From contig CAYOCD010000007.1 of the NCBI GenBank assembly GCA_964402425.1, positions 1,081 through 51,156 of the forward strand: 50,076 nt of DNA. The letters are read 5' to 3'. Made by a program: the position numbers and the translations under genes. The stretch is from an uncultured Gammaproteobacteria bacterium (lineage in GTDB: Bacteria; Patescibacteriota; Patescibacteriia; UBA9934; GWF2-40-263). Below are positions 4,554 to 42,921 of the stretch, one piece after another; position 1 is the stretch's first letter; each line of letters opens with the position of its first letter. The notes under the pieces were generated by a model. It made no database searches and was not told the DNA's origin. It was given only the letters and a program-made list of their open reading frames with translations.

Positions 4554-4605
4554 AGGTATTTTTGTGGTCGAGCATACCAATCTTGAGGCTTTGTGTCGAG
4601 AACAG

Positions 4606-4634
4606 TTGACAAAAGATGAGTTTTATCGTTAACT
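4606..4634 (+). promoter_or_regulatory. putative sigma70 promoter
   Basis: TTGACA-17 bp-TTAACT, with GGAGGAGG RBS at 4669-4676. Confidence 0.5.
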
Positions 4635-4681
4635 AGCGGGCACCCTCATTTTTGAGTATGCCCATTTCGGAGGAGGTTTCC

Positions 4682-5539
4682 GTGGCAAAACGTCGTTGCA
4701 AAGGCGCGTACGTCCGGATTGTACTCCCGGACGAATTACGCGCTCTTCCGAACAATATTTACGAACTCATCTCTGAAGCATCTGAATTTGCTACTCTGAG
4801 AGCACATTCCATTTGGAGAATGTCAGAACAGCTTAGTGAAGAAACATTCAGAGAAGATCATGAACGATTCGCGGAAATCGCTGAAAAAAATAAAGGGCTA
4901 CACCACCTTCTCCTGGCGGTCTTTTACACAAAGATCCATCAAGAGCTAGAACCGAGAGTTCCTGTTCACAAAATGCGTATTCGTAATAAATTTCTTGTTG
5001 CCGCAATGGCACAACGAGAACTTTCACGCGCATGTCTTTCTCTGCAAGAAACAGATGCAAAGAATATTCAAAATATTGATATGACACATGTCGGCATCAG
5101 TGCCGTCACGTGGAAAACAAATTTTGTTGGTGCCCGATCTGTCGCGCGCGTCATTTGTGCGTTCATTCAAAAAGGCGCAGAGATTTTTTTCCCGATTGCC
5201 TATATAGATATCCAGCTACGTATTGATCTATTAGTTCGGTTATCACCCTCTGGGATCGGACTTTGTGTCCAAATTAAAACCGAACAACATTTAGACAACA
5301 TTCAACACCGCCTCATTCAAGAAGTTTCGTATAGTGAAGTAGAAAAACTTGCAACCAGCGACAAATATTTTTTGAACGGAGTGTCTGAATTCCGAAATAA
5401 CAACACAGGAACATGGCTTCCACTTGAAATCAAGATTGGAAGCATTCCGTACACCCAGACAACCGTTCATCCACCCGAAGTAATTCTGAGCGCCTTCGAT
5501 GTGATGATCCAAAATCTCATTACCCAAACAATCGCCTAA
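4682..5539 (+). CDS. hypothetical protein with a possible C-terminal PD-(D/E)xK nuclease-like domain
   Basis: Long ORF; GTG start after GGAGGAGG; motif RIDLLV...LCVQIK. Confidence 0.6.
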   Translation: MAKRRCKGAYVRIVLPDELRALPNNIYELISEASEFATLRAHSIWRMSEQLSEETFREDHERFAEIAEKNKGLHHLLLAVFYTKIHQELEPRVPVHKMRIRNKFLVAAMAQRELSRACLSLQETDAKNIQNIDMTHVGISAVTWKTNFVGARSVARVICAFIQKGAEIFFPIAYIDIQLRIDLLVRLSPSGIGLCVQIKTEQHLDNIQHRLIQEVSYSEVEKLATSDKYFLNGVSEFRNNNTGTWLPLEIKIGSIPYTQTTVHPPEVILSAFDVMIQNLITQTIA

Positions 5540-5565
5540 AACGCTTCCACCAGAAGCGTTTTTTT
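5538..5565 (+). terminator. intrinsic terminator
   Basis: aaaacgcttc-cacca-gaagcgttttttt. Confidence 0.7.
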
Positions 5566-5574
5566 CTTACCCAA

Positions 5575-5603
5575 TTGAAAAAAACATGTACGTCGAGTAC
5601 ACT
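5575..5603 (+). promoter_or_regulatory. putative promoter for tRNA-Leu(TAG) and its hairpin leader
   Basis: TTGAAA-17 bp-TACACT. Confidence 0.55.
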
Positions 5604-5618
5604 CCAAACAAGAAACGT

Positions 5619-5746
5619 CATAAAACTTTCAAAATTGGATGGATTGCGAAGTTCTGGAGCCAAAAATATTGTGAAAGGTATCATAAAATACCTTGAACAA
5701 TTTTTTGGCGAAAGACAAGCAAGCCGCCAATTTTGGAAGTTTTATG
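5619..5746 (+). repeat. 128-nt hairpin element with 20-bp terminal inverted repeats abutting the tRNA-Leu 5' end
   Basis: cataaaactttcaaaattgg (5619-5638) pairs with ccaattttggaagttttatg (5727-5746), 19/20 plus one G-U; inner stems gccaaaaa/tttttggc and aaggtat/atacctt. Confidence 0.8.
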
Positions 5747-5830
5747 CGAGCGTGGCGGAATTGGTATACGCACTAGCCTTAGGAGCTAGCGGAGTAATCC
5801 ATGAGAGTTCGAGTCTCTCCGCTCGCACCA
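5746..5830 (+). tRNA. tRNA-Leu(TAG)
   Basis: Acceptor gcgagcg/cgctcgc, anticodon arm ctagc-ctTAGga-gctag, variable arm, GTTCGAG, encoded CCA. Confidence 0.97.
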
Positions 5831-5881
5831 ATACAAAAACAGATCAACCTTGCGTTGATCTGTTTTTGTATGATTAATCCA

Positions 5882-5910
5882 TTGACACAAACGGTGTTTT
5901 GACATACATT
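5882..5910 (+). promoter_or_regulatory. putative sigma70 promoter of the RHH gene pair
   Basis: TTGACA-17 bp-TACATT; second TTGACA at 5899-5904. Confidence 0.55.
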
Positions 5911-5945
5911 CCTTTCTCGCATTTGTCGCGAGTAATTAGGACATC

Positions 5946-6170
5946 ATGAGTACTGAAAAAATATTACACCGAGTACAATTTGATGCACCCCCATCAACCA
6001 TGACAATGCTCCTTGATCTAAAAACCAAAATGACAGCCTCCTCTTACAACGAGGTGCTAAGAGCGTCGCTTCGAGTTTTGAAAGAAATTCACGAGCTCGT
6101 TTCAAAAGGAAACAAGTTGTATGTAAAATCTCTTGATGGGGAGATGATTGAAATCAAATTCATTTTCTGA
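5946..6170 (+). CDS. ribbon-helix-helix (CopG-like) protein
   Basis: Strand RVQFDAP, helix, then SYNEVLRASL. Confidence 0.65.
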   Translation: MSTEKILHRVQFDAPPSTMTMLLDLKTKMTASSYNEVLRASLRVLKEIHELVSKGNKLYVKSLDGEMIEIKFIF

Positions 6171-6173
6171 ACA

Positions 6174-6419
6174 ATGGAAGAGGAGATCTTTGTGACAAGA
6201 ACAACAAAAACAAAAGATCGCACGCGTCTCAATTTAGAGCTTCCAAACACAACAATACAACGCATGGAAGATCTTTGTGTGCGTACAGAAGCAGAATCAA
6301 AGACAGAAGTTATCCGCCGCGCGTTACAGACTTACGAAGCTCTCTTGATCATGTCTGCCAAAGGCTCCATCATCCTTCGTCATGAAGATGGAACCGAAGA
6401 AAAAATTCTCTTCACCTGA
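6174..6419 (+). CDS. ribbon-helix-helix (CopG-like) protein
   Basis: RLNLELP...SKTEVIRRAL RHH pattern. Confidence 0.7.
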   Translation: MEEEIFVTRTTKTKDRTRLNLELPNTTIQRMEDLCVRTEAESKTEVIRRALQTYEALLIMSAKGSIILRHEDGTEEKILFT

Positions 6420-6473
6420 TTCGCGCAATGCGAATCTTTTTTTATTCATCTATTTCCATTACACTTCCTTCAT

Positions 6474-6689
6474 ATGATCAAGCTCGGAATCTATCGCCAT
6501 TACAAAGGGAATCTTTATGAAGTTCTTGGCGAAGCCAAACATTCTGAAACACTCGAACCCATGATTGTCTATCGTGCACAATATGGCGATCAAGAACTTT
6601 GGGTTCGCCCATTCGAAATGTTTGTTGAAGAAGTTCTGTTCGAAGGAACAATGCAACCACGTTTTCAATTTTTAGAACAACAAAAATAA
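6474..6689 (+). CDS. DUF1653-domain protein
   Basis: GIYRHYKGNLYEV...HSETLEPMIVYRAQYG..LWVRP signature. Confidence 0.9.
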   Translation: MIKLGIYRHYKGNLYEVLGEAKHSETLEPMIVYRAQYGDQELWVRPFEMFVEEVLFEGTMQPRFQFLEQQK

Positions 6690-6699
6690 TTATCAATCT

Positions 6700-6933
6700 A
6701 TGAATTTCCTCATTCAGGTGATTGGCTGGTCGGGAACAATCTTAGTTGTTATGGCCTACGTATTGGTTTCTAATAAAAAAGTCAGTAGCACAAGTACAAC
6801 TTATCAATGGTTAAATTTGCTTGGTGCCACAGGGATTGGTATCAATACATTTTTTTTGCACGCATGGCCATCATTTGCTCTTCAGCTCATATGGGGTGGC
6901 GTAGCCATTGCTGCGCTCATCAAGAAAAAATAA
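6700..6933 (+). CDS. small 3-TM membrane protein (CBU_0592-like)
   Basis: IGWSG, YQWLNLLGA, AWPSFALQLIW; three hydrophobic segments. Confidence 0.75.
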   Translation: MNFLIQVIGWSGTILVVMAYVLVSNKKVSSTSTTYQWLNLLGATGIGINTFFLHAWPSFALQLIWGGVAIAALIKKK

Positions 6934-6997
6934 TTTTATCCACAAACATACCATTGACAAACACAAAATTTTTTGATGAAATGTTTATACGAGAATT

Positions 6998-7038
6998 AAG
7001 AACTCCTGAATGATTAAATCATTTGGGAGTTCTTTTTT
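6998..7038 (+). terminator. intrinsic terminator-like hairpin
   Basis: aagaactcc...ggagttctttttt long stem. Confidence 0.6.
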
Positions 7039-7116
7039 GTTTTCGAGAAATCGGAAGCACGATCTGATCCGTCGTCTTCATTTGCGCAAGTGTTCATTCA
7101 CATTTTCATTGACCCT

Positions 7117-9696
7117 ATGAAACAAAATCGCACGTTGATTGTTATTTTCTCCCTCTGCGCGCTTGTGTTTGGATTTGTTCCAAATACCATACAGGCAACC
7201 ATGGCACCGGACGTCATCATTTCTGAAGTGATGTGGGCAGGTTCATCTGTATCTGCAGCAGACGAATGGATTGAACTTACAAACATGAGTAACCAACCCG
7301 TCGATGTTTCCGGATGGAGTCTTACGGGTGCATCAAGTGCCCCCATCATTTTTCCCGATAACAGCTTCATGGAACCACATACACCTTTTCTCATTTCAAA
7401 CTATGCGCACACAAACACCAACTCAACACTCAACACACAGTCGCAAATCGTCACGACCATGGTCTCACTCCCAAATGACAAACTCGCCCTTACGCTCACG
7501 GCACCGAATCGAGGCATGGTCGATTCCGCCGGCAACGGAGGAGCTCCTTTCGCAGGAACATCTGGCGGAACTGGAGATGCACTTCATGGACAATACCGAT
7601 CCATGGAACGAAGAGATTTCTTAATGGACGGTACGACAAAAGACGCGTGGACAGATGCAGATTCATCAAATGGATTTAAAGAATCCGCACTCGATCAAGG
7701 AACTCCCGGAAGTTTAAACGCTGATTTGCAATCTCTCCTCATTAACACGTCTACACCAACCACACCAATTGCTGTTGCGCCTGCAACTCCTATCGAACAA
7801 GAACAAATTTGTGAAGATGTCGCGATTGATCTTATCGCAACTGTCGCGCTCGAAGCGGACGTTATCCCTCAAGCAGAGCCAACATCTGACGAAATTCAAA
7901 CACTCACTCCAGCAGAACAACCCGCTTTGAATTCAATGGAACAAAATCCGCCACCACAAGGCACATTACGCATAAGCGAAATTTATTCGCATCCAGCAAC
8001 AGGAGAATCTGAATGGATCGAATTTGAAAACACATCTTCTTATCCAGTGACAACAAACGGATGGAATATGCTTGACGCAAGTGGCGCTTCTACTCTTCTT
8101 CCGGACGTCATTGTAAGTCCAGGAACATATCTCACAATCGAAAATCCAAAAGGTAAACTTAATAACGACAGTGACTCAGTCACCCTTAAAGATGCAAACG
8201 GATCTGTGATCGAATCCGTTCTCTATCATACAGATCTTGGAAATGTGCCGGATGTAAATGAATCTCTTGTTCGAATCAATGAGCAGACATTTGCTCTTAC
8301 GACAACACCAACAAAAAACACATCCAACACATTAACACCTCGCCCGCCAAAAACATCTTCTGTCTCAAATACAACAACGCAAGCAACCACAACTTCTGTT
8401 ACAGAAACGATTGCGACAAACACAGAAATCGTTTCATCGGTCCCTCACGAAACAGAACAACCAACAAAACCAGAAATCGTTACTGAACCTGAACCTTCAA
8501 AACCAATTCTTAAGACTCTTCGCCTTTCAGCATTCTATCCAAACACGGGCGGAAACGATCTAACAGATGAATACATTGAAATCGAAAATACAGGCGATCA
8601 ACCTGTTGTCCTTGATGGATGGAAGATCGTTGATGCGGGTGGAACCAAATTTACTTTTACAAAAGACACTCAAATTGCCGCATATACATTCCATCGTCTC
8701 CTTCGTCCTGAAACAAAAATCAGTCTAAATAATGACGGTGACACTGTTACGCTCATCGCCCCTGACGGATCGATCATTGATACACAAACATATGAACAAG
8801 CAAAAAGTCAGTTCGCATTCGCACGCTCAAACAACGTTTGGTCTTGGACGACAACAATTACGCCGAATGAACCAAGTGTGGTTTCGGAAAACAGCTCTGC
8901 GGTTTCAACAACATCTGAAACAAGAACACCTTCAACTCCAAACACTTCTCCAACCACACAATCCAGTGGGTCCATCTCTCCTTCTCTCGTAACCATCGAA
9001 GACGCAAAACTGCATGCGGATGGAACACGCATGAAAGTTCGAGGAGTCGTAACCGCTCTCCCAAACACGTTCAACTCACAAACCATGTACATCCAAGATG
9101 ACACAGGCGGAATTCAAATTTTCAAAAGTGATTGTCGCTTCCCAACACTCGCTCTTGGTCAATCGATTACCGTCACAGGTGTTCTCTCACACATCAACGG
9201 TGAGGCGCGTCTAAAAGTCATGAATCAAACATCTCTCACTGTTGGCTCAATCACAAATACCGTTTCACCGACTTCTGGAAATGTTTCTTCCATTGGTTCC
9301 CTCATGACCATTGCTGGAACCATTACATCAAAATCCGGAACACGACTTGCTCTTGATGTTGATGGAGAAACATGGAACGTAGATCTCCCAAAAACGAACA
9401 CAGCAACATATAAAAAAGGAGAATCTATCACAGTAAGTGGCATTCTTGCGAACGCAAAAAATGGTCCTGTCCTCAAAGCACGCTCAGAACAGGATGTAAC
9501 ACCGTTACCAAAAGCAGACACCAAACAATCCGTACCAAACATAACCGCCACAGAATCAACAGAACCAAAACAAACTCTCGCGATCGTTTTGATTCTTCTC
9601 TCATCACTCGCGTTCATTGGTCTTAAACTCCGACCACGCTTTTATGCATTCACACAATCCTATGGACGAAAGCCCTCTTTCCCTCCTCGAGCTTAA
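7117..9696 (+). CDS. secreted, membrane-anchored protein with three lamin-tail domains and OB-fold domains
   Basis: Signal peptide; three repeats of the type I(S)E..../E(W/Y)IE..N/GW...D/LNN..D; Thr/Pro/Ser linkers; VRGVVT..YIQDDTGGI OB-fold motif; C-terminal TM helix. Confidence 0.85.
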   Translation: MKQNRTLIVIFSLCALVFGFVPNTIQATMAPDVIISEVMWAGSSVSAADEWIELTNMSNQPVDVSGWSLTGASSAPIIFPDNSFMEPHTPFLISNYAHTNTNSTLNTQSQIVTTMVSLPNDKLALTLTAPNRGMVDSAGNGGAPFAGTSGGTGDALHGQYRSMERRDFLMDGTTKDAWTDADSSNGFKESALDQGTPGSLNADLQSLLINTSTPTTPIAVAPATPIEQEQICEDVAIDLIATVALEADVIPQAEPTSDEIQTLTPAEQPALNSMEQNPPPQGTLRISEIYSHPATGESEWIEFENTSSYPVTTNGWNMLDASGASTLLPDVIVSPGTYLTIENPKGKLNNDSDSVTLKDANGSVIESVLYHTDLGNVPDVNESLVRINEQTFALTTTPTKNTSNTLTPRPPKTSSVSNTTTQATTTSVTETIATNTEIVSSVPHETEQPTKPEIVTEPEPSKPILKTLRLSAFYPNTGGNDLTDEYIEIENTGDQPVVLDGWKIVDAGGTKFTFTKDTQIAAYTFHRLLRPETKISLNNDGDTVTLIAPDGSIIDTQTYEQAKSQFAFARSNNVWSWTTTITPNEPSVVSENSSAVSTTSETRTPSTPNTSPTTQSSGSISPSLVTIEDAKLHADGTRMKVRGVVTALPNTFNSQTMYIQDDTGGIQIFKSDCRFPTLALGQSITVTGVLSHINGEARLKVMNQTSLTVGSITNTVSPTSGNVSSIGSLMTIAGTITSKSGTRLALDVDGETWNVDLPKTNTATYKKGESITVSGILANAKNGPVLKARSEQDVTPLPKADTKQSVPNITATESTEPKQTLAIVLILLSSLAFIGLKLRPRFYAFTQSYGRKPSFPPRA

Positions 9697-9794
9697 AAAA
9701 CGACTTGAAGCACGCGCCTTTACGTACGGCGTTTCCTCGGCCGTTTCAACCCTCCTTGGAGAATACGTTTTAGAACTCTTAACCAAACCCTATT

Positions 9795-10016
9795 ATGTCC
9801 GACACACAAACAAAACCATGGTTTAACCAACTCAGACAAAAACTCACGGACATGGCAGAACAATTTGATCTCGATCCAATTCAATCCGAACAATTCCGCG
9901 AAACAATGTTTGGACTTTGCAAACAAGAATACATGCTCGGAAACAAATCCGGTATCGCCTGGGCATTCAAAAAAGCCGCAGAAAAACGCGGCAATTCACA
10001 AGCGGTCGCAGCGTGA
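9795..10016 (+). CDS. small hypothetical protein
   Basis: 73-aa ORF, co-oriented with its neighbours and filling the gap. Confidence 0.6.
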   Translation: MSDTQTKPWFNQLRQKLTDMAEQFDLDPIQSEQFRETMFGLCKQEYMLGNKSGIAWAFKKAAEKRGNSQAVAA

Positions 10017-10030
10017 TATAATCCATTTCT

Positions 10031-10414
10031 ATGGATAGAAATACACCCCTCACATTTGGACTCTTCGAAACCTACATGGATAAATTCCAAAGGTATCTTG
10101 AAGATCGATTCGAAAAAATTGGTGACCGATTTGATTCAATGGAACATCATTTGTCAGAGCAAATTGAAAATCTTGCGTTTGCCACAAAAACAGGATTCAA
10201 TGATATGGATAGGCAATTCCATGAAGTTCGTCAGGATGTTTCAGACATCAAACAAGACGTGACAATTTTGAAACAAGACGTTACTGTCATGAAGCAAGAT
10301 ATCTCGGTACTCAAAATCGATATGAAGGATTGCAAGCAATATATCCAAACATCTAGTATCGAATCAAGTTCAAATCGTGTGCGACTCCAAAATCTGGAAG
10401 CACACATTGCATAA
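10031..10414 (+). CDS. coiled-coil protein with heptad repeats
   Basis: Repeated KQDVxx(I/L/M) heptads; terminator follows. Confidence 0.75.
   Translation: MDRNTPLTFGLFETYMDKFQRYLEDRFEKIGDRFDSMEHHLSEQIENLAFATKTGFNDMDRQFHEVRQDVSDIKQDVTILKQDVTVMKQDISVLKIDMKDCKQYIQTSSIESSSNRVRLQNLEAHIA
10232..10315 (+). repeat. degenerate 21-nt tandem repeat x4, in frame
   Basis: caggatgtttcagacatcaaa / caagacgtgacaattttgaaa / caagacgttactgtcatgaag / caagatatctcggtactcaaa. Confidence 0.7.
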
Positions 10415-10416
10415 AC

Positions 10417-10449
10417 AAAAAGACTCGCCATTGCGGCGAGTCTTTTTTT
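10417..10449. terminator. bidirectional terminator
   Basis: aaaaagactcgcc-attgc-ggcgagtcttttttt between convergent genes. Confidence 0.8.
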
Positions 10450-11080
10450 ATTCAAGGGGTGGGAGATTAAAATCAACTTCAAGTTGTTTTCTTCGTGCAA
10501 CAACCGATGCAGAAGTTTTCTTTGCCAAAATATCTCTGCACACAAGCGCAGCCTGACGCATTTCATCAGAGCGTAAAAACGCGTCGTCAATTTTACAACG
10601 TTTTACAAGTTGTACTGCTCCAGAAGAATCTCCTCGCGTCATGGCAGCAAGTGAGACATCTTTCATTTTTCCTTGCATCTCTTCTGTTGCAAGTAACGCG
10701 TCCGGAATCTGAAAACGATCTATGATTCCAAATGCAGAAGATAATCGGTTTGCGGAAATCTCGGCAAGCGCCATATTCATGGCACTCGATTGCGTTTCTG
10801 GATTTGTATTAAATTCAGCCGTCTTCTCAGCACTCCAATCCCCCATCACAAGCGCAACATCTTCTGGATCATGTGCAATTTCTCCTGTCATCATTTTTTG
10901 CACAAACGCCTCTTCCGAGAGATTTAACCGCTTTGCTTTTTCAAGCAAAATTCCTCTTTGCCTACGCTCTTCTGCGTAAATTTCTTCTTCTGGAGACAAT
11001 TCTACTACTTCTACCTTTGTCTCTGGTACTGAAGCTGTCATTGCTTCGTCGGGCCGAAACCCAGATTCAGGATTATTCAT
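10448..11080 (-). CDS. hypothetical alpha-helical protein
   Basis: Start moved to ATG MNNPES because the longer ORF overlaps the tRNA; two similar units (RFQIPDALLATEEMQ / RCKIDDAFLRSDEMR). Confidence 0.7.
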   Translation of the reverse strand: MNNPESGFRPDEAMTASVPETKVEVVELSPEEEIYAEERRQRGILLEKAKRLNLSEEAFVQKMMTGEIAHDPEDVALVMGDWSAEKTAEFNTNPETQSSAMNMALAEISANRLSSAFGIIDRFQIPDALLATEEMQGKMKDVSLAAMTRGDSSGAVQLVKRCKIDDAFLRSDEMRQAALVCRDILAKKTSASVVARRKQLEVDFNLPPLE

Positions 11081-11106
11081 ATGAGAAAAATTATACAGGA
11101 ACAAAC

Positions 11107-11136
11107 AAAAACACCCAACCAAGGTTGAGTGTTTTT
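11107..11136 (-). terminator. terminator after tRNA-Gly
   Basis: aaaaacacccaacc-aa-ggttgagtgttttt. Confidence 0.65.
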
Positions 11137-11137
11137 G

Positions 11138-11212
11138 TGGAGCAGGAAACGGGATTCGAACCCGCGGCCTTCTCCTTGGCAAGGAGAAGCTCTACCCCTG
11201 AGCTATTCCTGC
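11138..11212 (-). tRNA. tRNA-Gly(GCC)
   Basis: gcaggaa/ttcctgc acceptor, tctcc-ttGCCaa-ggaga anticodon arm, GTTCGAATC, encoded CCA. Confidence 0.97.
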
Positions 11213-11337
11213 TAAAATCCTCAAAATTTGCGCCCAGCCAGCATGGCCCTGCGCTCCGCGTTCGAAGGACAAGTCGTCCATCTCACTTGCGGTGCTCGGT
11301 CTACACTGACTGTGCATCAAATTTTGAGAATTTTAGC
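11211..11337 (-). repeat. 127-nt hairpin element with 20-bp terminal inverted repeats abutting the tRNA-Gly 5' end
   Basis: gctaaaatcctcaaaatttg (11211-11230) vs caaattttgagaattttagc (11318-11337), 19/20 plus one G-U on the transcribed strand. Confidence 0.8.
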
Positions 11338-11367
11338 ACGCACACGTGCTAGCTCTTAAGTGGTCGT

Positions 11368-11396
11368 ATTCTAGTAAAAAGTCGCTGATACGTCAA
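11368..11396 (-). promoter_or_regulatory. putative promoter for tRNA-Gly and its hairpin leader
   Basis: TTGACG-17 bp-TAGAAT on the minus strand. Confidence 0.65.
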
Positions 11397-11416
11397 CGGA
11401 TCAAGAAAACCACAAA

Positions 11417-11503
11417 TTATCGATATTGTTCATGAAGTGCAATCGCCGTTGCGGTCGCCACGTTTAGGCTTTCTAATTTTGAGTTGTGTTCGATCATCAC
11501 AGA
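11417..11503 (-). pseudogene. orphan 3' fragment of the TrmH-family methyltransferase gene (diverged direct repeat of 14027-14113)
   Basis: Encodes SVMIEHNSKLESLNVATATAIALHEQYR* vs SVVIDHEVKLESLNVATATAIALHERYR* in the intact gene; 70/87 nt identical by manual alignment. Confidence 0.9.
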
Positions 11504-11524
11504 TATTCTGCCACGCATGATGGA

Positions 11525-11553
11525 TTGACTCAAATCCATTTATTTGTTATGTT
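11525..11553 (+). promoter_or_regulatory. promoter of the E2-E1-Ubl operon
   Basis: TTGACT-17 bp-TATGTT with extended TG; hairpin cttgct-ttcg-agcaag (11559-11574) at the predicted +1. Confidence 0.6.
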
Positions 11554-11610
11554 CCCTCCTTGCTTTCGAGCAAGAATGCCCTTTTACATGACACAAACAG
11601 GAGATGCATC

Positions 11611-13005
11611 ATGACGGACAACCAGAAAAATGTGCAAGTACACGCTTTTGCCGTACCCGCTCTGCTTATGCGCTCACTTGGTCTCAAGATACCATCCGGC
11701 GCCAACATGACACGGATGAGTGCAGAGACCGAAGGCTTCAACATCGCAGTCGACCTGTTCTCATTTCGCTCTGCACGCGCTCGCAACAAAGCCGCAAGTG
11801 CATTTGTTGCAACGGCCAAGCAGACGGGAAAGACTCTCGAAAAGGTTGCGTGTCTCGCAGACAACACGGCCACGGATCTCTATGTCACCATAACGAGTGC
11901 GGAACTTTCTTCGCCAGACGAACAAAATGATCGGAACTTCTATCTTTCCTTTAAAGAATTCATTGATCCGGACTTTGAACATCTCAAGGCCGTCTCACGG
12001 TTCTTCGGACTTCCCATCGTATTGTGCCACGGACACGACATTATTCAACCGCCGTTTCCTCAAACAAAAGATGGGCGCATCTATTTCTTCTACTGTTCAA
12101 GACCTCCAGGTGCGAAACCTGAAATAGACATGCCGGTTGAAGAACTCTTTGGCCTCAAGCTCTGGAAGCATGGTGAGAAACGATTCATTCATCCACAAAC
12201 CCCCGGACGAGGTCGTGTCATTGAGCAGAATGGTGTGTGCGTATTCCAAGTCCTTGGACGCAACTACTACCAGATCTGTTTGGTTCCGTTCGATGAACAC
12301 CATCCGGTGAATCGAGACACCATCTTCGTGAAACTCCTCGAGGTGCTCTATCACGATCTACTCGAACACAACGGAACTGATCTAGAAGTCGCTGAAGCAA
12401 CCAGTGAGGAGCTTGTAACATTTGGCGAAAAACAAGCCGACAAACTTCTCCGCGACGAACGGGATGATCTGAAAAAAACGGAATATGCGATTAGTAAAAA
12501 GGAACAAGAACTCTTTGAACTACTAGCAAAACGTGATCAGTCGATGAGGGTAATCCGTGCAATCTCTGCGGACCCATTCACTTCTGAACTGCATGATCGT
12601 CTTCCAAAAGAATGTTCCGAGATCAAAAACGTTGCTCATGTCTCCTCTGTTCATATTGTCGACGAAGCCATCCAAATCAAAACCACACCAATCGTGATCA
12701 CTCACGAAAATGTGAATTATGATCTTGGACCATTCATTATTCGACTCGATAATAAAGGTAAGCCATCTGTGTGGAGCGACAACCCCAAACACCCGAAAGG
12801 ACATCATCATCCGCACATCGGACGGATTCAACTCGCATGCTTCGGCAATATCACCCTCGCGGTTGCAAAACACATAGCAGCATTCCGCTATGCAGATGCA
12901 ACACGCCTCGTGATTCGATGGCTTCACTCGTACAATCCAGACAACACACTCACACTCATTGAAGAATGGGCCCCTGAAAAGAACTTGGAGGTTCCCCATG
13001 ACTAA
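11611..13005 (+). CDS. multidomain protein: unknown N-terminal region, coiled coil, C-terminal prokaryotic E2/UBC-like domain
   Basis: AGGAG RBS at 11599-11603; heptad region LRDERDDLKKTEYAISKKEQELFELL; HHPHIGRIQLACFGN resembles the E2 HPN...C active site; directly upstream of an E1 and a Ubl. Confidence 0.7.
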   Translation: MTDNQKNVQVHAFAVPALLMRSLGLKIPSGANMTRMSAETEGFNIAVDLFSFRSARARNKAASAFVATAKQTGKTLEKVACLADNTATDLYVTITSAELSSPDEQNDRNFYLSFKEFIDPDFEHLKAVSRFFGLPIVLCHGHDIIQPPFPQTKDGRIYFFYCSRPPGAKPEIDMPVEELFGLKLWKHGEKRFIHPQTPGRGRVIEQNGVCVFQVLGRNYYQICLVPFDEHHPVNRDTIFVKLLEVLYHDLLEHNGTDLEVAEATSEELVTFGEKQADKLLRDERDDLKKTEYAISKKEQELFELLAKRDQSMRVIRAISADPFTSELHDRLPKECSEIKNVAHVSSVHIVDEAIQIKTTPIVITHENVNYDLGPFIIRLDNKGKPSVWSDNPKHPKGHHHPHIGRIQLACFGNITLAVAKHIAAFRYADATRLVIRWLHSYNPDNTLTLIEEWAPEKNLEVPHD

Positions 13006-17463: not shown

Positions 17464-17937
17464 ATGAGACCTAAAAAATGGAATAACGAACAACTGAAAG
17501 CTGCTGTTGCCGAATCTCGAAGCGTGAGGCAAGTTCTTGGCAAGTTGGGATTAAAACAAGCTGGAGGAAATTATGCACAGATCAAGAAATATTTAACGGA
17601 ATTCAAAATCGAAAGCAAACATTTTACAGGTCGGGGATGGTCAAAAGGATTACGCATAACAACAAATCCTGGTGCACCGATTGAAGAATTACTCGTCAAC
17701 AATAGTGGTTATCAAAGTTTCAAACTGAAGCGACGATTATTTGATGCAAACTTAAAGCCAAAACACTGTGAAGAATGTGGCTGGTCAAAAATCTCAAAAG
17801 ATGGCAGACTACCTCTCGAGTTGGATCATATCAATGGGAATCCTCGAGATCATCGATTGGAAAACCTGCGAGTACTCTGTCCAAATTGCCACAGTTTAAA
17901 ACCAACTCATCGGGGGAGAAATAAGAAACATGCTTAA
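17464..17937 (+). CDS. HNH endonuclease (free-standing, homing-type)
   Basis: CEECG...LELDHINGNPRDHRLENLRVLCPNCH; N-terminal helical DNA-binding-like region. Confidence 0.92.
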   Translation: MRPKKWNNEQLKAAVAESRSVRQVLGKLGLKQAGGNYAQIKKYLTEFKIESKHFTGRGWSKGLRITTNPGAPIEELLVNNSGYQSFKLKRRLFDANLKPKHCEECGWSKISKDGRLPLELDHINGNPRDHRLENLRVLCPNCHSLKPTHRGRNKKHA

Positions 17938-17939
17938 AT

Positions 17940-18025
17940 GGGACGATGGCGGAATGGTATACGCTCGACACTTAAAATGTCGTCTGGGAAACCGGGTGCG
18001 GGTTCGAGTCCCGCTCGTCCCACCA
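17940..18025 (+). tRNA. tRNA-Leu(TAA)
   Basis: gggacga/tcgtccc acceptor, cgaca-ctTAAaa-tgtcg, variable arm, GTTCGAG, encoded CCA. Confidence 0.97.
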
Positions 18026-24672: not shown

Positions 24673-26106
24673 ATGATCAGTGCTCAATCTCTTGCAAAAA
24701 ATTTCACCATTCAGACCATTGGAAAGGTTCTTTCGATCCTTCTTGGTCTTGTCACCATCGCTATTATTACACGCGCTCTTGGTACAGAACAATTTGGTGA
24801 ATACACCACCATTGCCACCTATTTGCAGTTTTTTGGCATTTTGGTGGATTTTGGTTTAACCCTCACTCTTCTTGTCATGATTTCGGAAAACGGGGCGAAT
24901 GAGGAAAAAATTGTTGGAAACTTTCTGGGACTTCGGCTTGTTTCTGGTTTTTTTCTGTTTGCCCTTGCTCCTATCATCATTCTTGCATTCCCCTACTCGT
25001 CAACCATCAAACAAGCCGTCCTTTTTGGTGCGTTCGCTTATTTTCTGATGGGTGGGGCATCCCTCCTCGTCGGTGTTTTTCAAAAACATGAAGCTATGTG
25101 GCGCGCAGCCTTAGGAGAGCTCATCAACCGACTGGTTCTTCTTATCACAATTGCGATTCTCGCATGGTTTCAGTTTGGTGTTGTCGCTTTTGTTGCAGCA
25201 GCAATCCTTGCAAACGCTGTTTGGTTTTGGCTCATGATTCGTTTTGCAAAACCATTCATTCTTATTCGTCCAAAATTTGAACTTCCTGTATGGAAAGATA
25301 TTATCGGACGCAGTTGGCCGATTGCGGTTTCCATTATTTTTAACCTGATGTATTTGAAAGGGGATATTTTGATCCTTTCTTTGTTTCGATCGCAAACCGA
25401 AGTTGGATTGTATGGAGTCGCATATCGCATCATCGATATTCTGACAGTCCTTCCTATGATGTTCATGGGGCTTTTACTCCCCTCACTCACACACGCTTGG
25501 ACAAACGGTCATCATGACCAATTCCGCTCACGCCTTTCGCACACGTTTGATATCTTCATGATTGCGGTCATACCCATCATTGCTGGTGCACAAATTCTTG
25601 GCACAGAACTCATTACCTTTATTGCGGGACCTGGATATGAACAAGGTGGAGATATTTTGAAAGTGTTGATTCTCGCGGTTTTTGGCGTTTTTATTGGAAC
25701 ATTATTTGGTCACCTTGTTGTTGCTCTCAATAAACAACGAACAATGATTTTTGGATACGCAACAGCCGCCACACTCTCTCTCGTAGGATATTTTTATTTG
25801 ATTCCGAAGTATGGAATGTACGGTGCTGCCTGGATGACTGTCTTTTCGGAAGTATTCATTGCAATCGTCACATTTGTTGTTGTCTATAAAACCTCAAAAG
25901 CCCTTCCGCATCTTGGTGTATTTCTTAAATCTGTCTTTGCGGCACTTCTCATGTCAGGATTTATTCTTGTTCTTCCCTCAATGCATGTGGCACTCGATAT
26001 TTTATTCGGTGCACTCATTTATTTTGTGGCTATGGTGGCAATCGGTGGTATTAAGTGGGAAGATCTTAAGCTTATGGTTCCTGGACGCTTCAAAAAATCC
26101 GTATGA
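24673..26106 (+). CDS. wzx: Wzx-type polysaccharide flippase
   Basis: Many TM segments; RALGTEQFGEY, DFGL, VGLYGVAYR, LIPKYGMYGAAW. Confidence 0.88.
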   Translation: MISAQSLAKNFTIQTIGKVLSILLGLVTIAIITRALGTEQFGEYTTIATYLQFFGILVDFGLTLTLLVMISENGANEEKIVGNFLGLRLVSGFFLFALAPIIILAFPYSSTIKQAVLFGAFAYFLMGGASLLVGVFQKHEAMWRAALGELINRLVLLITIAILAWFQFGVVAFVAAAILANAVWFWLMIRFAKPFILIRPKFELPVWKDIIGRSWPIAVSIIFNLMYLKGDILILSLFRSQTEVGLYGVAYRIIDILTVLPMMFMGLLLPSLTHAWTNGHHDQFRSRLSHTFDIFMIAVIPIIAGAQILGTELITFIAGPGYEQGGDILKVLILAVFGVFIGTLFGHLVVALNKQRTMIFGYATAATLSLVGYFYLIPKYGMYGAAWMTVFSEVFIAIVTFVVVYKTSKALPHLGVFLKSVFAALLMSGFILVLPSMHVALDILFGALIYFVAMVAIGGIKWEDLKLMVPGRFKKSV

Positions 26107-27350
26107 TGTTTGTTATCATCGCTCTCCTCGCTCTCTTTGCCTTTCTCACCTGGCGCAATCTTGAAACAGGCGTGCTCTTGTTGTGTGCCCTTTTACCAAG
26201 TTATCTCATTCGATTTTCAATCGGAGGCGTACCAACAACTTTTCTTGAAGCAATGACATTCATCGTCGTTGGTATCTGGTCAATCAAGACAAATTGGAAG
26301 ACAGAAATACAAGTGTTTAAAAAAAATCCACTCATGATTGCGATTGATCTTTTATTACTCGCAGCAACGATCGGCATATTCATTTCACCTGACAAACAAG
26401 CAGCAATCGGCGTTTGGAAAGCCTTTTACATCGAACCGGTCCTGGTGTTTTTTGTCATCCTTCGTTTGTTTGCAAAATCTTCCTCGCAACAAAATAGAAT
26501 CAAGAGAACGCAAGAAAAAATATTTCAGGCATTTGGGGCAAGTGCTCTTCTTATTTCCCTTTTCGGTCTCATCCAATATGTTTTTTTGATCGGTATTCCA
26601 GCCCCATGGGATCTTGAGCGTCGTATCACAAGCCTCTTTGAATATCCAAATGCCCTTGCTCTCTTTCTTGAGCCGATCATTGTGATTTCATGGTTCATGA
26701 TTCCAACATATGTAAAAACAAAACCAAAAGAATTTTGGTTTTGGCTTTTTGTAAGTATCCTTTCAACCATCAATGTGTTTCTTGCGCAATCAGAAGCAGG
26801 AATCGCCGCACTTATTGTCACAGCTGTTTGTATTCTCCTATTTTCGAAAACAACACGCCGACAAACACTCGCTTCGATCATGATCATAAGCGCACTCGTC
26901 TTCACAATTCCAACCTCTCGTGAATACCTTATAAAAAAACTCATATTTCAGGACACATCCGAACAAGTTCGTCTCAGTCAGTGGAAAGAAACAGGGGTAC
27001 TTCTCAAAGATCACCCAATCATGGGGGTTGGACTTTCTGGATACCCGATCGCTCTCAAACCGTATCACCACGATGTACCATACGAAATTTTCCAATATCC
27101 TCACAACATTTTTCTCAACATCTGGGTCGAACTCGGAATACTTGGACTTGCAGCATTTTCCCTTCTTGCCTTCCAACTTTTCTTTCGCCCCTTCCGACCT
27201 GTCAGCATTTTCTTTTTTCTCTTCCTTGAGATCTTCCTTCACAGCCTTGTCGATGTTCCCTATTTCAAAAATGATCTTGCGATGATGACGTGGATCTTCA
27301 TTGCATGTGCAATCGCATTACGAACAAACAAACCATATGTCACTCTTTAA
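26103..27350 (+). CDS. O-antigen ligase/polymerase family protein
   Basis: RITSLFEYPNALA, QSEAG, RLSQW, HPIMGVG, YPHNIFL..ELGILG. Confidence 0.88.
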   Translation: MMFVIIALLALFAFLTWRNLETGVLLLCALLPSYLIRFSIGGVPTTFLEAMTFIVVGIWSIKTNWKTEIQVFKKNPLMIAIDLLLLAATIGIFISPDKQAAIGVWKAFYIEPVLVFFVILRLFAKSSSQQNRIKRTQEKIFQAFGASALLISLFGLIQYVFLIGIPAPWDLERRITSLFEYPNALALFLEPIIVISWFMIPTYVKTKPKEFWFWLFVSILSTINVFLAQSEAGIAALIVTAVCILLFSKTTRRQTLASIMIISALVFTIPTSREYLIKKLIFQDTSEQVRLSQWKETGVLLKDHPIMGVGLSGYPIALKPYHHDVPYEIFQYPHNIFLNIWVELGILGLAAFSLLAFQLFFRPFRPVSIFFFLFLEIFLHSLVDVPYFKNDLAMMTWIFIACAIALRTNKPYVTL

Positions 27351-42855: not shown

Positions 42856-42921
42856 TCACCCCGAGAAGATAGCATGTGAAAGTGATCACATCAAGGATTC
42901 CTCTGTTATAATCTATTTACT

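Follow-up and report, generated by a model that had tools for sequence, protein, structure and literature searches.

The window analysed here comprises 50,076 nucleotides (positions 1,081 to 51,156 of the forward strand of contig CAYOCD010000007.1). Between a promoter-like site and the gene for tRNA-Leu(TAG) it contains a 128-nt element, 5619–5746 (+), which folds as a single long hairpin. It belongs, as one copy among many, to a dispersed family of non-coding palindromic repeats, ~130 bp long, which occurs in the Patescibacteria (Uhrbacteria and relatives). The copies share a placement rule: the 3' end of the element, here called the R end, lies immediately 5' of hairpin-forming sequence on the forward strand. 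A reading made from the letters of the window alone (the sequence-only reading) had offered two descriptions of the element, an undescribed non-coding RNA (ncRNA) or a family resembling MITEs (miniature inverted-repeat transposable elements). The evidence leans towards a mobile repeat with a constrained fold. The account which we think probable, though with reserve, is a composite one, in which a non-autonomous, structure-constrained mobile repeat is transcribed within the leaders and trailers of pre-tRNAs, is removed from them by processing, and spreads at the level of DNA with its R end coming to lie at the base of a stable fold.

Two copies in the window

The minimum free energy (MFE) of 5619–5746 is -57.5 kcal/mol as against -21.3 +/- 3.5 for 200 dinucleotide shuffles (z -10.5), none of which equalled it. 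Both ARAGORN and the Rfam tRNA model place +1 of tRNA-Leu(TAG) at base 5746, which is the last base of the hairpin. A second copy of 127 nt, 11211–11337 (-), precedes tRNA-Gly(GCC) and its final two bases are +1 and +2 of that tRNA; the 128-nt stretch 11211–11338 has an MFE of -64.2 kcal/mol (z -7.9). The sequence-only reading had described a long hairpin lying between promoter and tRNA and ending in tRNA +1, and with this the fold, both tRNA predictions and the promoter-like sites agree. It had also related the two copies to each other through their lengths (128 versus 127 nt), their 5' arms (identical at 15/20 positions) and an apical GTGA(A/G)A...TT(C)GAAC motif present in both, all of which were found again on re-reading the sequence.

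Distribution of the family

The genome to which the window belongs (G000; 970,933 bases in 19 contigs, 96.7% complete) was examined by folding the 160 nt 5' of each of its 34 ARAGORN tRNAs, and the same hairpin appeared before several further tRNAs. A covariance model (R1) was built from ten copies and a second (R2) from 106 matches. The two models agree on 14 copies in this genome, each taken on its better strand. Seven lie directly 5' of a tRNA on the same strand (Leu-TAG, Gly-GCC, Met-CAT, Lys-TTT, Lys-CTT, Leu-CAG and Ile-GAT, the last being a 71-nt short form) and three lie inverted, directly 3' of the encoded CCA of Ile-GAT, Tyr and Met-CAT, so that tRNA-Met(CAT) carries copies at both of its borders. 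Thus the leader or trailer of nine of the 34 detected tRNA genes holds the element (10 copies). The other four are found before a protein gene, between two genes, just 5' of uvrB, and before a GC-rich folded stretch.

R1 also matches 24 of 41 related genomes (E<=0.001), including all seven congeners searched and 18 of 24 genomes in the family. Elsewhere in the order it matches 3/3, 1/2 and 1/3 genomes of other families, with none in three more (0/4 in family f4, 0/3 in f7 and 0/1). The number of matches per genome ranges from 0 to 28; some of these are second matches, on the weaker strand, at a place matched on the other. Under stricter filters and at E<=1e-5, 18 of 151 genomes match in a sample drawn evenly from the class. 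Lastly, a scan of the genome_contigs collection with a degenerate core pattern gave at least 120 stretches, from which 80 loci were taken to a model check; 26 were confirmed at E<=1e-6, and the other 54 are chance matches in unrelated phyla. By record title the confirmed loci belong to Candidatus Uhrbacteria (7), Patescibacteria group (6), Candidatus Lloydbacteria (2), Parcubacteria group (1) and "bacterium" (2), the remaining eight being metagenome-assembled genomes labelled Gammaproteobacteria.

The family proved to be without a known counterpart in Rfam 15. At the gathering score, Rfam models found only tRNA and large subunit (LSU) rRNA across the window and nothing for the element; at E<=0.1 no non-tRNA match to the element was obtained in seven copy-bearing loci. 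At E<=10 the window copy drew generic miRNA-precursor-like hairpins far below threshold (MIR8562, 18.5 bits versus a gathering score of 211). A full-text literature search, subscription journals being outside its scope, returned no description of the element.

Several other leaders in the same genome contain hairpins of comparable size. A complex and near-identical ~125-nt leader hairpin before both copies of tRNA-Gln(CTG) (C1 ~12720–12870 and C3 ~24839–24990) is missed by both R1 and R2. Both models also fail to match the 127-nt leader hairpin of tRNA-Arg(CCT) (C5 ~51525–51656; locus L010), which ends in tRNA +1 to +3 and whose core (GATAG/TTGC) is similar to that of the family. On contig C3 (L009), a stretch of about 90 nt before tRNA-Thr(CGT) (27261–27336) and another before tRNA-Thr(TGT) (89408–89483) resemble a tRNA acceptor and D-arm (..GTAGCTCAG ... 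TTGGTAGAGC), in each case split by two GC-rich hairpins. Each may be part of a tRNA in duplicate, or else a leader insert of a different kind.

Structure and covariation

The general plan of the element is an outer stem of ~20 bp, a conserved bulged A, a U.G wobble, conserved internal loops and a variable apical stem-loop. The wobble lies in the context 5' ...GG-A-UG... paired with ...CG-CC... 3' (core GAUG...UCGC), and the consensus around the internal loops reads GAUGAgAUgCG..G..CugGag ... GAG.cGUA-loop-UACg.UGA ... cGaagc.C.AgcAg.UCGC. The unpaired core bases are conserved.

Covariation was assessed on an alignment of 95 distinct rows which, being fitted to the model, favours the model's structure, and whose sequences are related. 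Standard pairs occupy 89.5% of cells, as against 36–45% when the 3' partners are slid by 1–3 columns, and changes on both sides of a pair number 792 cells versus 231 +/- 15 in shuffles. By this measure 30 of the 31 pairs covary; covariation, which the sequence-only reading had made a test of the family, is strong. The U.G pair is retained in 86 of the 95 rows. In the window's genus the outer arms have ...AAAACTTTCAAAATTGG, whereas G034 has ...TAGGACTTACGCATTTGG and G037 has ...GTGGATTTCTGAAAATGG; in all three the arm is perfectly complementary to its partner. Because the slid controls and this raw listing of arms show the same thing, the constraint on the fold stands apart from the model-fitted alignment.

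The sequence of the outer stem is common to the copies within a genome and is swapped as a pair between genera. Since the arms differ between lineages and yet remain complementary, the outer stem offers no fixed sequence for the binding of a protein. Outside the invariant wobble, G.U/U.G combinations on the forward strand exceed A.C/C.A by 140 to 62, and the forward strand is therefore the strand whose fold is kept. The excess is seen in leaders (51 to 31), in copies not at tRNAs (67 to 28) and in trailers (22 to 3).

Placement and polarity

For the study of placement, 80 matches in relatives, taken from the best-scoring R1 rows, were taken with 300-nt flanks and joined to nine further loci. 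This gave 94 distinct copies from 17 relatives' genomes which, with the 14 of G000, make 108; the relatives' copies are the best-scoring listed matches and not a random sample, and copies from kin are not independent. The R end adjoins a tRNA gene in 56 of the 108. In 43 of these (36 from relatives, 7 from G000) it lies -3 to +7 nt from tRNA +1 on the same strand, and in 13 (10 and 3, respectively) it lies against the reverse complement of the CCA end of the tRNA. In the remaining 52 (48 and 4) it does not adjoin an ARAGORN-called tRNA. The opposite, or L, end was never found within 12 nt of a tRNA among the 108 copies, the nearest cases being 13–26 nt away in Leu(CAA)-Met clusters. Within leaders the commonest position of the hairpin base is tRNA -1 (12/43), and in 34 of the 43 it falls between -5 and +3. 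A fixed ruler from the conserved CGC to tRNA +1 was ruled out, this distance being 17–27 nt with a mode of 20–21.

What adjoins the R end in the other copies is often structured as well. By eye, three more R ends (L056, L106 and L110) face tRNA-like or tmRNA-like sequence, and two (L069 and L031) face what looks like the reverse complement of the 3' end of 23S rRNA. Many of the remaining R ends meet the back of an intrinsic terminator (an A-run followed by a hairpin), nine of them under a strict rule, whereas three L ends lie behind a hairpin with a T-run; some other R ends face GA-rich palindromes. The 40-nt flanks of the 47 copies which are not at tRNA or rRNA genes fold to a mean of -8.1 kcal/mol on the R side versus -4.2 kcal/mol on the L side (Wilcoxon p 1.7e-4, which is overstated as kin copies are not independent), and flanks at -9 kcal/mol or below number 18 and 5, respectively. 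Consequently the proposal that the family is targeted to tRNA 5' ends holds for 43 of 108 copies but not for the 13 inverted at CCA ends or the 52 away from ARAGORN tRNAs, and placement at tRNAs alone is too narrow since terminators and other palindromes also adjoin the R end. In this distribution selection may act as a filter: terminators would be met from behind, their other side being coding sequence, and tRNAs from either side, leader and trailer both being dispensable.

Some details of individual sites may be recorded here. Directly after the copy at C8:6396–6525 of G000 there is a closed GC-rich fold of ~170 nt (C8:6526–6700; L012 427–600) without an Rfam match; RNase P RNA was considered for this region and rejected, no Rfam match being found there. 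GA-rich palindromes lie next to the R end in G028 (L048) and G034 (L100). With respect to flanking open reading frames (ORFs), the clear arrangements, E being the element, were >E> in 11 cases, <E> in 9, <E< in 7 and >E< in 2, many others being ambiguous.

Evidence for and against mobility

Two properties generally expected of MITEs are apparent. The ~20-bp complementary arms constitute terminal inverted repeats and occur in many dispersed copies, and occupancy differs between congeners at orthologous sites. In an alignment of the tRNA-Ser(CGA) promoters, G006 shows an element of ~135 nt after its -10 box and before the tRNA; at the same place G000 has an 8-nt leader. The tRNA-His genes of G002, G003 and G004 are followed, directly after CCA, by an inverted copy where G000 has an ordinary terminator, and in G004 the terminator sequence of the G000 site follows the element. 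In front of tRNA-Leu(TAA), G002 and G006 possess a promoter and element, and G000 possesses a gene for an HNH endonuclease. There are, in addition, signs of multiplication: the copies fetched from G034 are mutually 85–93% identical at unrelated, non-tRNA sites, and the trailer copies of the window's genus (His, Arg(GCG), Glu(TTC) and one tRNA-like 3' end) are 85–91% alike across loci and genomes. A contig of DNA run X21 which joins 5579 to 5740, and so skips the element, has only 20 letters on its shorter side at 88% likeness and was counted as no evidence.

A number of results weigh against a mobile repeat. Many copies start and end in TA and others do not, and comparisons of filled and empty sites give no clean duplication. 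Neither a full-length insertion sequence (IS) nor an autonomous copy with the same arms was found in G000, where the model detects ~130-nt copies only; in G034 the arm motif occurs solely as pairs of ~105–130 nt and as four single arms, again with no autonomous copy. Within 300 nt of the 108 copies (600 nt in G000) there is no recurrent gene, but only orthologous neighbours. The Y1 transposase (PF01797) does not track the element, having no matches in G000, G006 or G037 (14–26 element matches) and being present in the element-free G008, G014 and G017. Small GIY-YIG ORFs (PF01541) occur in 41/41 genomes in numbers unrelated to the element. Nor is there a replication-strand bias in G000, in which nine copies lie on the C-rich strand and five on the G-rich strand (GC skew being clear), so that lagging-strand transposition of single-stranded DNA (ssDNA) in the manner of IS200/IS605 is disfavoured. 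To these must be added two signs of function in place of a decaying insertion, which are the conservation of the unpaired core bases and the retention of the Leu-TAG and Met-CAT copies throughout the genus with compensatory evolution in situ. The peak of the forward-strand G.U bias in trailers, where the tRNA transcript carries the opposite strand, is difficult to interpret.

With regard to the two enzyme families, ORFs of ~290 aa with a Y1_Tnp domain are common in the order (for example G002 C5:291695–292018, and five copies in G015), matches being present in 30/41 genomes. Four small GIY-YIG ORFs lie 85–365 nt from an element (G015 C39:21228–21428 and C7:24704–24916; G001 C55:3773–3973; G003 C13:19249–19452), and in both G015 cases a tRNA or tRNA-like stretch is found between element and ORF. 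Such ORFs may reflect the gathering of mobile genes at tRNA borders.

Signs of constraint in long-held copies

Five congeners have the tRNA-Leu(TAG) unit in collinear form, with promoter, a variable spacer of 10–16 nt, element and tRNA. The five elements are 77–91% identical to the nearest orthologue. Substitutions between them come in pairs and lie in the outer stem, the core-side stem and the apical stem, and the adjacent spacer varies freely. Between G000 and G006 the Met-CAT leaders share 92% identity, and three orthologous tRNA-His trailers display the same compensatory pattern. Compensatory changes at sites held for so long indicate that these copies are not simply decaying insertions, although hairpin-templated repair could in principle mimic selection.

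The trailers require separate comment. Their strand bias (22 to 3) is on the strand which the tRNA transcript does not carry, and therefore selection at the RNA level on the tRNA transcript is not the whole story; the L side of the trailer copies is often closed by a terminator. Neither a purely RNA-level account nor a simple "safe haven" account explains this bias. Either the forward strand is read as ssDNA by some enzyme, or its features are inherited from a master copy.

Processing and the proposed mechanism

At both window copies promoter-like site, element and tRNA are contiguous, and both copies would be transcribed as the 5' leaders of pre-tRNA-Leu and pre-tRNA-Gly. RNase P cleavage at tRNA +1 would then free a hairpin RNA of ~135–160 nt, and RNase III may act first on the 20-bp stem, which is perfectly paired. 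Such a release of the hairpin by RNase P is plausible. Both rnpA (RnpA) and rnc (RNase III) are present in G000; RNase P RNA (RF00010) was not found in its 19 contigs, whereas a type-A RNase P RNA was found in 19 of 20 relatives. The lengths of the RF00010 matches in relatives (G001–G032) vary from 315 to 559 nt, which suggests that some of these genes have insertions. In contigs of one metatranscriptome run (X24) compared with window 4600–12000, only a 151-nt piece (4667–4817) and tRNA-Gly look-alikes were covered, and neither element was among them.

If processing does remove the element exactly, the insertion would be harmless, and this would be the reason that tRNA borders tolerate it and that copies persist there. 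On the composite account set out at the beginning, the family itself would spread by a process acting on DNA which sets the R end at the base of a stable fold.

Alternative explanations

The best of the alternatives, possible but on the unlikely side in our estimation, is that the element is a dedicated functional RNA module, that is, a conserved pre-tRNA leader or an RNase P-made small RNA which serves as a protein-binding, processing, stability or regulatory signal, copies at other sites being secondary. Strong covariation, together with unpaired nucleotides conserved across class-level divergence, speaks for this, as do the strand-specific U.G wobble and G.U bias, the vertical retention of copies at one and the same tRNA, where a conserved promoter precedes them and compensatory changes have accrued while the spacer varies, and the 43 of 108 copies situated exactly in tRNA leaders with the hairpin base mostly at -1. 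It is difficult to reconcile with the 13 inverted trailer copies and the many behind terminators, in which the forward strand is probably untranscribed and the G.U bias is nonetheless kept. Presence is moreover patchy (families f4 and f7 lack it in every genome searched), the tRNAs bearing the element differ between congeners, and in some genomes there have been bursts at non-tRNA sites.

A more speculative suggestion, to which we give rather little credence, is that of a structure-homing element. New copies of a gene-less 130-nt hairpin would be set down, in one fixed polarity, at the 5' base of whatever stable fold DNA or RNA can form, tRNA cloverleaves in both orientations, terminators and other palindromes included, and a host or candidate phyla radiation (CPR)-specific enzyme would read the bulged-A/U.G core on one strand. 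Copies held for long at tRNA sites would have become domesticated as leaders, which RNase P sets free in the form of a stable, double-stranded-like small RNA. Were it true, either the homing or the domestication half would by itself be a mechanism not described for bacterial repeats.

It is quite improbable, in our view, that the element is primarily an ssDNA site recognised by an enzyme of the host, comparable to the Ssn/NTS repeats or to the attC sites of integrons, and serves genome maintenance, control of transformation or recombination. In build it resembles attC, the ~20-bp stem carrying on one strand both an extrahelical base and a mismatch, the terminal structure being variable, and structure being conserved over sequence. 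The forward-strand features are kept whatever the local direction of transcription, and an outer stem common within a genome but differing between genera is as expected from co-evolution with a trans factor. The core sites of attC are not seen at the element's ends, however, and in G000 the copies show no bias as to replication strand. The order is rich in small GIY-YIG genes, but G020 and G022, which have the element, have one GIY-YIG match, while the element-free G017, G018 and G023 have four to six. Ssn nucleases recognise oriented hairpin repeats according to PMC11893778, but the element lacks the NTS motif as given there.

That the hairpin arose by chance, or is an ordinary terminator or attenuator of genes nearby, can be set aside with near certainty: the element is intergenic and lies just after a terminator, but its fold is far beyond that of shuffled sequences, more than 100 homologous copies covary, and its stem is followed by the start of a tRNA and not by a U-run.

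Other features of the window

Table 1. Features of the window that bear on the element (coordinates are those of the window).
Feature	Position	Strand	Remarks
Terminator-like hairpin and T-run closing the upstream ORF (4652–5539)	5538–5562	+	Sequence, ORF list
Sigma-70-like promoter TTGAAA-17-TACACT of the tRNA-Leu(TAG) unit	5575–5603	+	Kept in four congeners; ends 15 nt before element
Hairpin element, copy 1, forward; R (3') end at tRNA +1	5619–5746	+	Covariance-model match 5618–5747
tRNA-Leu(TAG), CCA encoded	5746–5830	+	ARAGORN, Rfam
tRNA-Gly(GCC)	11138–11212	-	ARAGORN, Rfam
Hairpin element, copy 2, GC-richer interior subtype; R end overlaps tRNA-Gly +1 and +2	11211–11337	-	Model match 11210–11338
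Sigma-70-like promoter TTGACG-17-TAGAAT of the tRNA-Gly unit	11368–11396	-	Ends ~30 nt before element
HNH endonuclease ORF at the place of promoter and element in G002 and G006	17464–17937	+	Just 5' of tRNA-Leu(TAA)
tRNA-Leu(TAA)	17940–18025	+	3' neighbour of HNH ORF
Empty site: tRNA-Ser(CGA) promoter and 8-nt leader, element-free	42856–42900	-	Orthologous G006 promoter has ~135-nt element

The HNH ORF specifies a protein of 157 aa (Pfam HNH, E 3e-6) and stops 2 nt short of tRNA-Leu(TAA). A gene 62% identical to it is also found directly upstream of tRNA-Leu(TAA) in G022, which belongs to another genus. Being present in three of 41 genomes, it looks like a homing-type gene linked to the border of this tRNA; as it does not track the element it was rejected as a partner enzyme. 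Just 3' of tRNA-Leu(TAG), at 5946–7013 (+), there are five small ORFs in a row (68–81 aa); four were scanned against Pfam, one being a DUF1653 protein (E 3.5e-29) and three having no match.

Significance and relation to known elements

The genomes of the ultra-small CPR bacteria are ~1 Mb in size and densely packed, and their non-coding elements are almost uncharted. The present family recurs across a bacterial class, and its covariation is among the clearer signals that genome data by themselves can yield. Should it be a mobile repeat, the placement of one end against a hairpin points to a structure-guided mechanism of insertion; if it is an RNA module, it would represent a new class of pre-tRNA leader and a candidate RNase P-made small RNA. 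For annotation purposes the family merits a covariance model in both RNA and repeat libraries, as its copies will otherwise be read as anonymous intergenic sequence.

The element could not be assigned to the group IIC introns, the IS1111-type elements, the rRNA intervening sequences (IVS), attC or the Ssn/NTS repeats, though it shares something with each. The attC sites are likewise strand-specific hairpins in which structure, extrahelical bases and orientation prevail over sequence. The ends of the element (TAAAAC...GTTTTA) do not fit the attC core-site consensus RYYYAAC/GTTRRRY, and its copies are dispersed and form no cassette arrays (no search for IntI was made). The same likeness extends to the Ssn-related NTS/SRM repeats as described in PMC11893778. 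Unlike what such a relationship would require, GIY-YIG genes do not track the element, and it has no recurrent flanking gene.

The rRNA IVS are extended hairpins within 23S and 16S genes which are removed by RNase III. Like the element as read here, they are hairpins of ~100–200 nt inside the transcript of a stable RNA, harmless via processing and sporadic among relatives. They lie inside rRNA helices, whereas the elements flank the mature RNA on its 5' or 3' side.

For group IIC introns the insertion site is after a terminator stem-loop; for IS1111/IS110-type IS the targets are REP or attC hairpins. Both resemble the element in having one defined end by a stem-loop, a fixed orientation and terminators among their targets. 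The element differs in being 130 nt long, in lacking ribozyme domains, an ORF and a bridge or guide RNA, and in having tRNA genes as its main neighbour.

The REP and BIME elements with their RAYT (Y1) transposases are, as is the element, oriented extragenic palindromes of lineage-specific sequence which often follow genes. The REP units measure 20–40 nt; the element is longer, and Y1_Tnp is missing from the element-bearing G000, G006 and G037.

There remain the structured bacterial repeats of MITE type, namely ERIC (~127 bp), the Correia/NEMIS elements of Neisseria (~100–155 bp) and the Rickettsia palindromic elements (RPE). All of these are transcribed together with adjacent genes, and Correia elements are cut by RNase III. 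Against all three, the element is set apart by its strict polarity with respect to tRNA genes and other hairpins, by arms which covary between lineages around a conserved core and offer no fixed transposase-binding sequence, and by showing neither a proven TA duplication nor, in G000 and G034, a cognate IS. Like the element they are non-coding and ~100–155 bp in length, have long inverted arms that form one hairpin, and are dispersed in intergenic DNA with a copy number that varies among relatives. By analogy of size, shape and behaviour, these structured MITEs are the nearest known things to the family described here.

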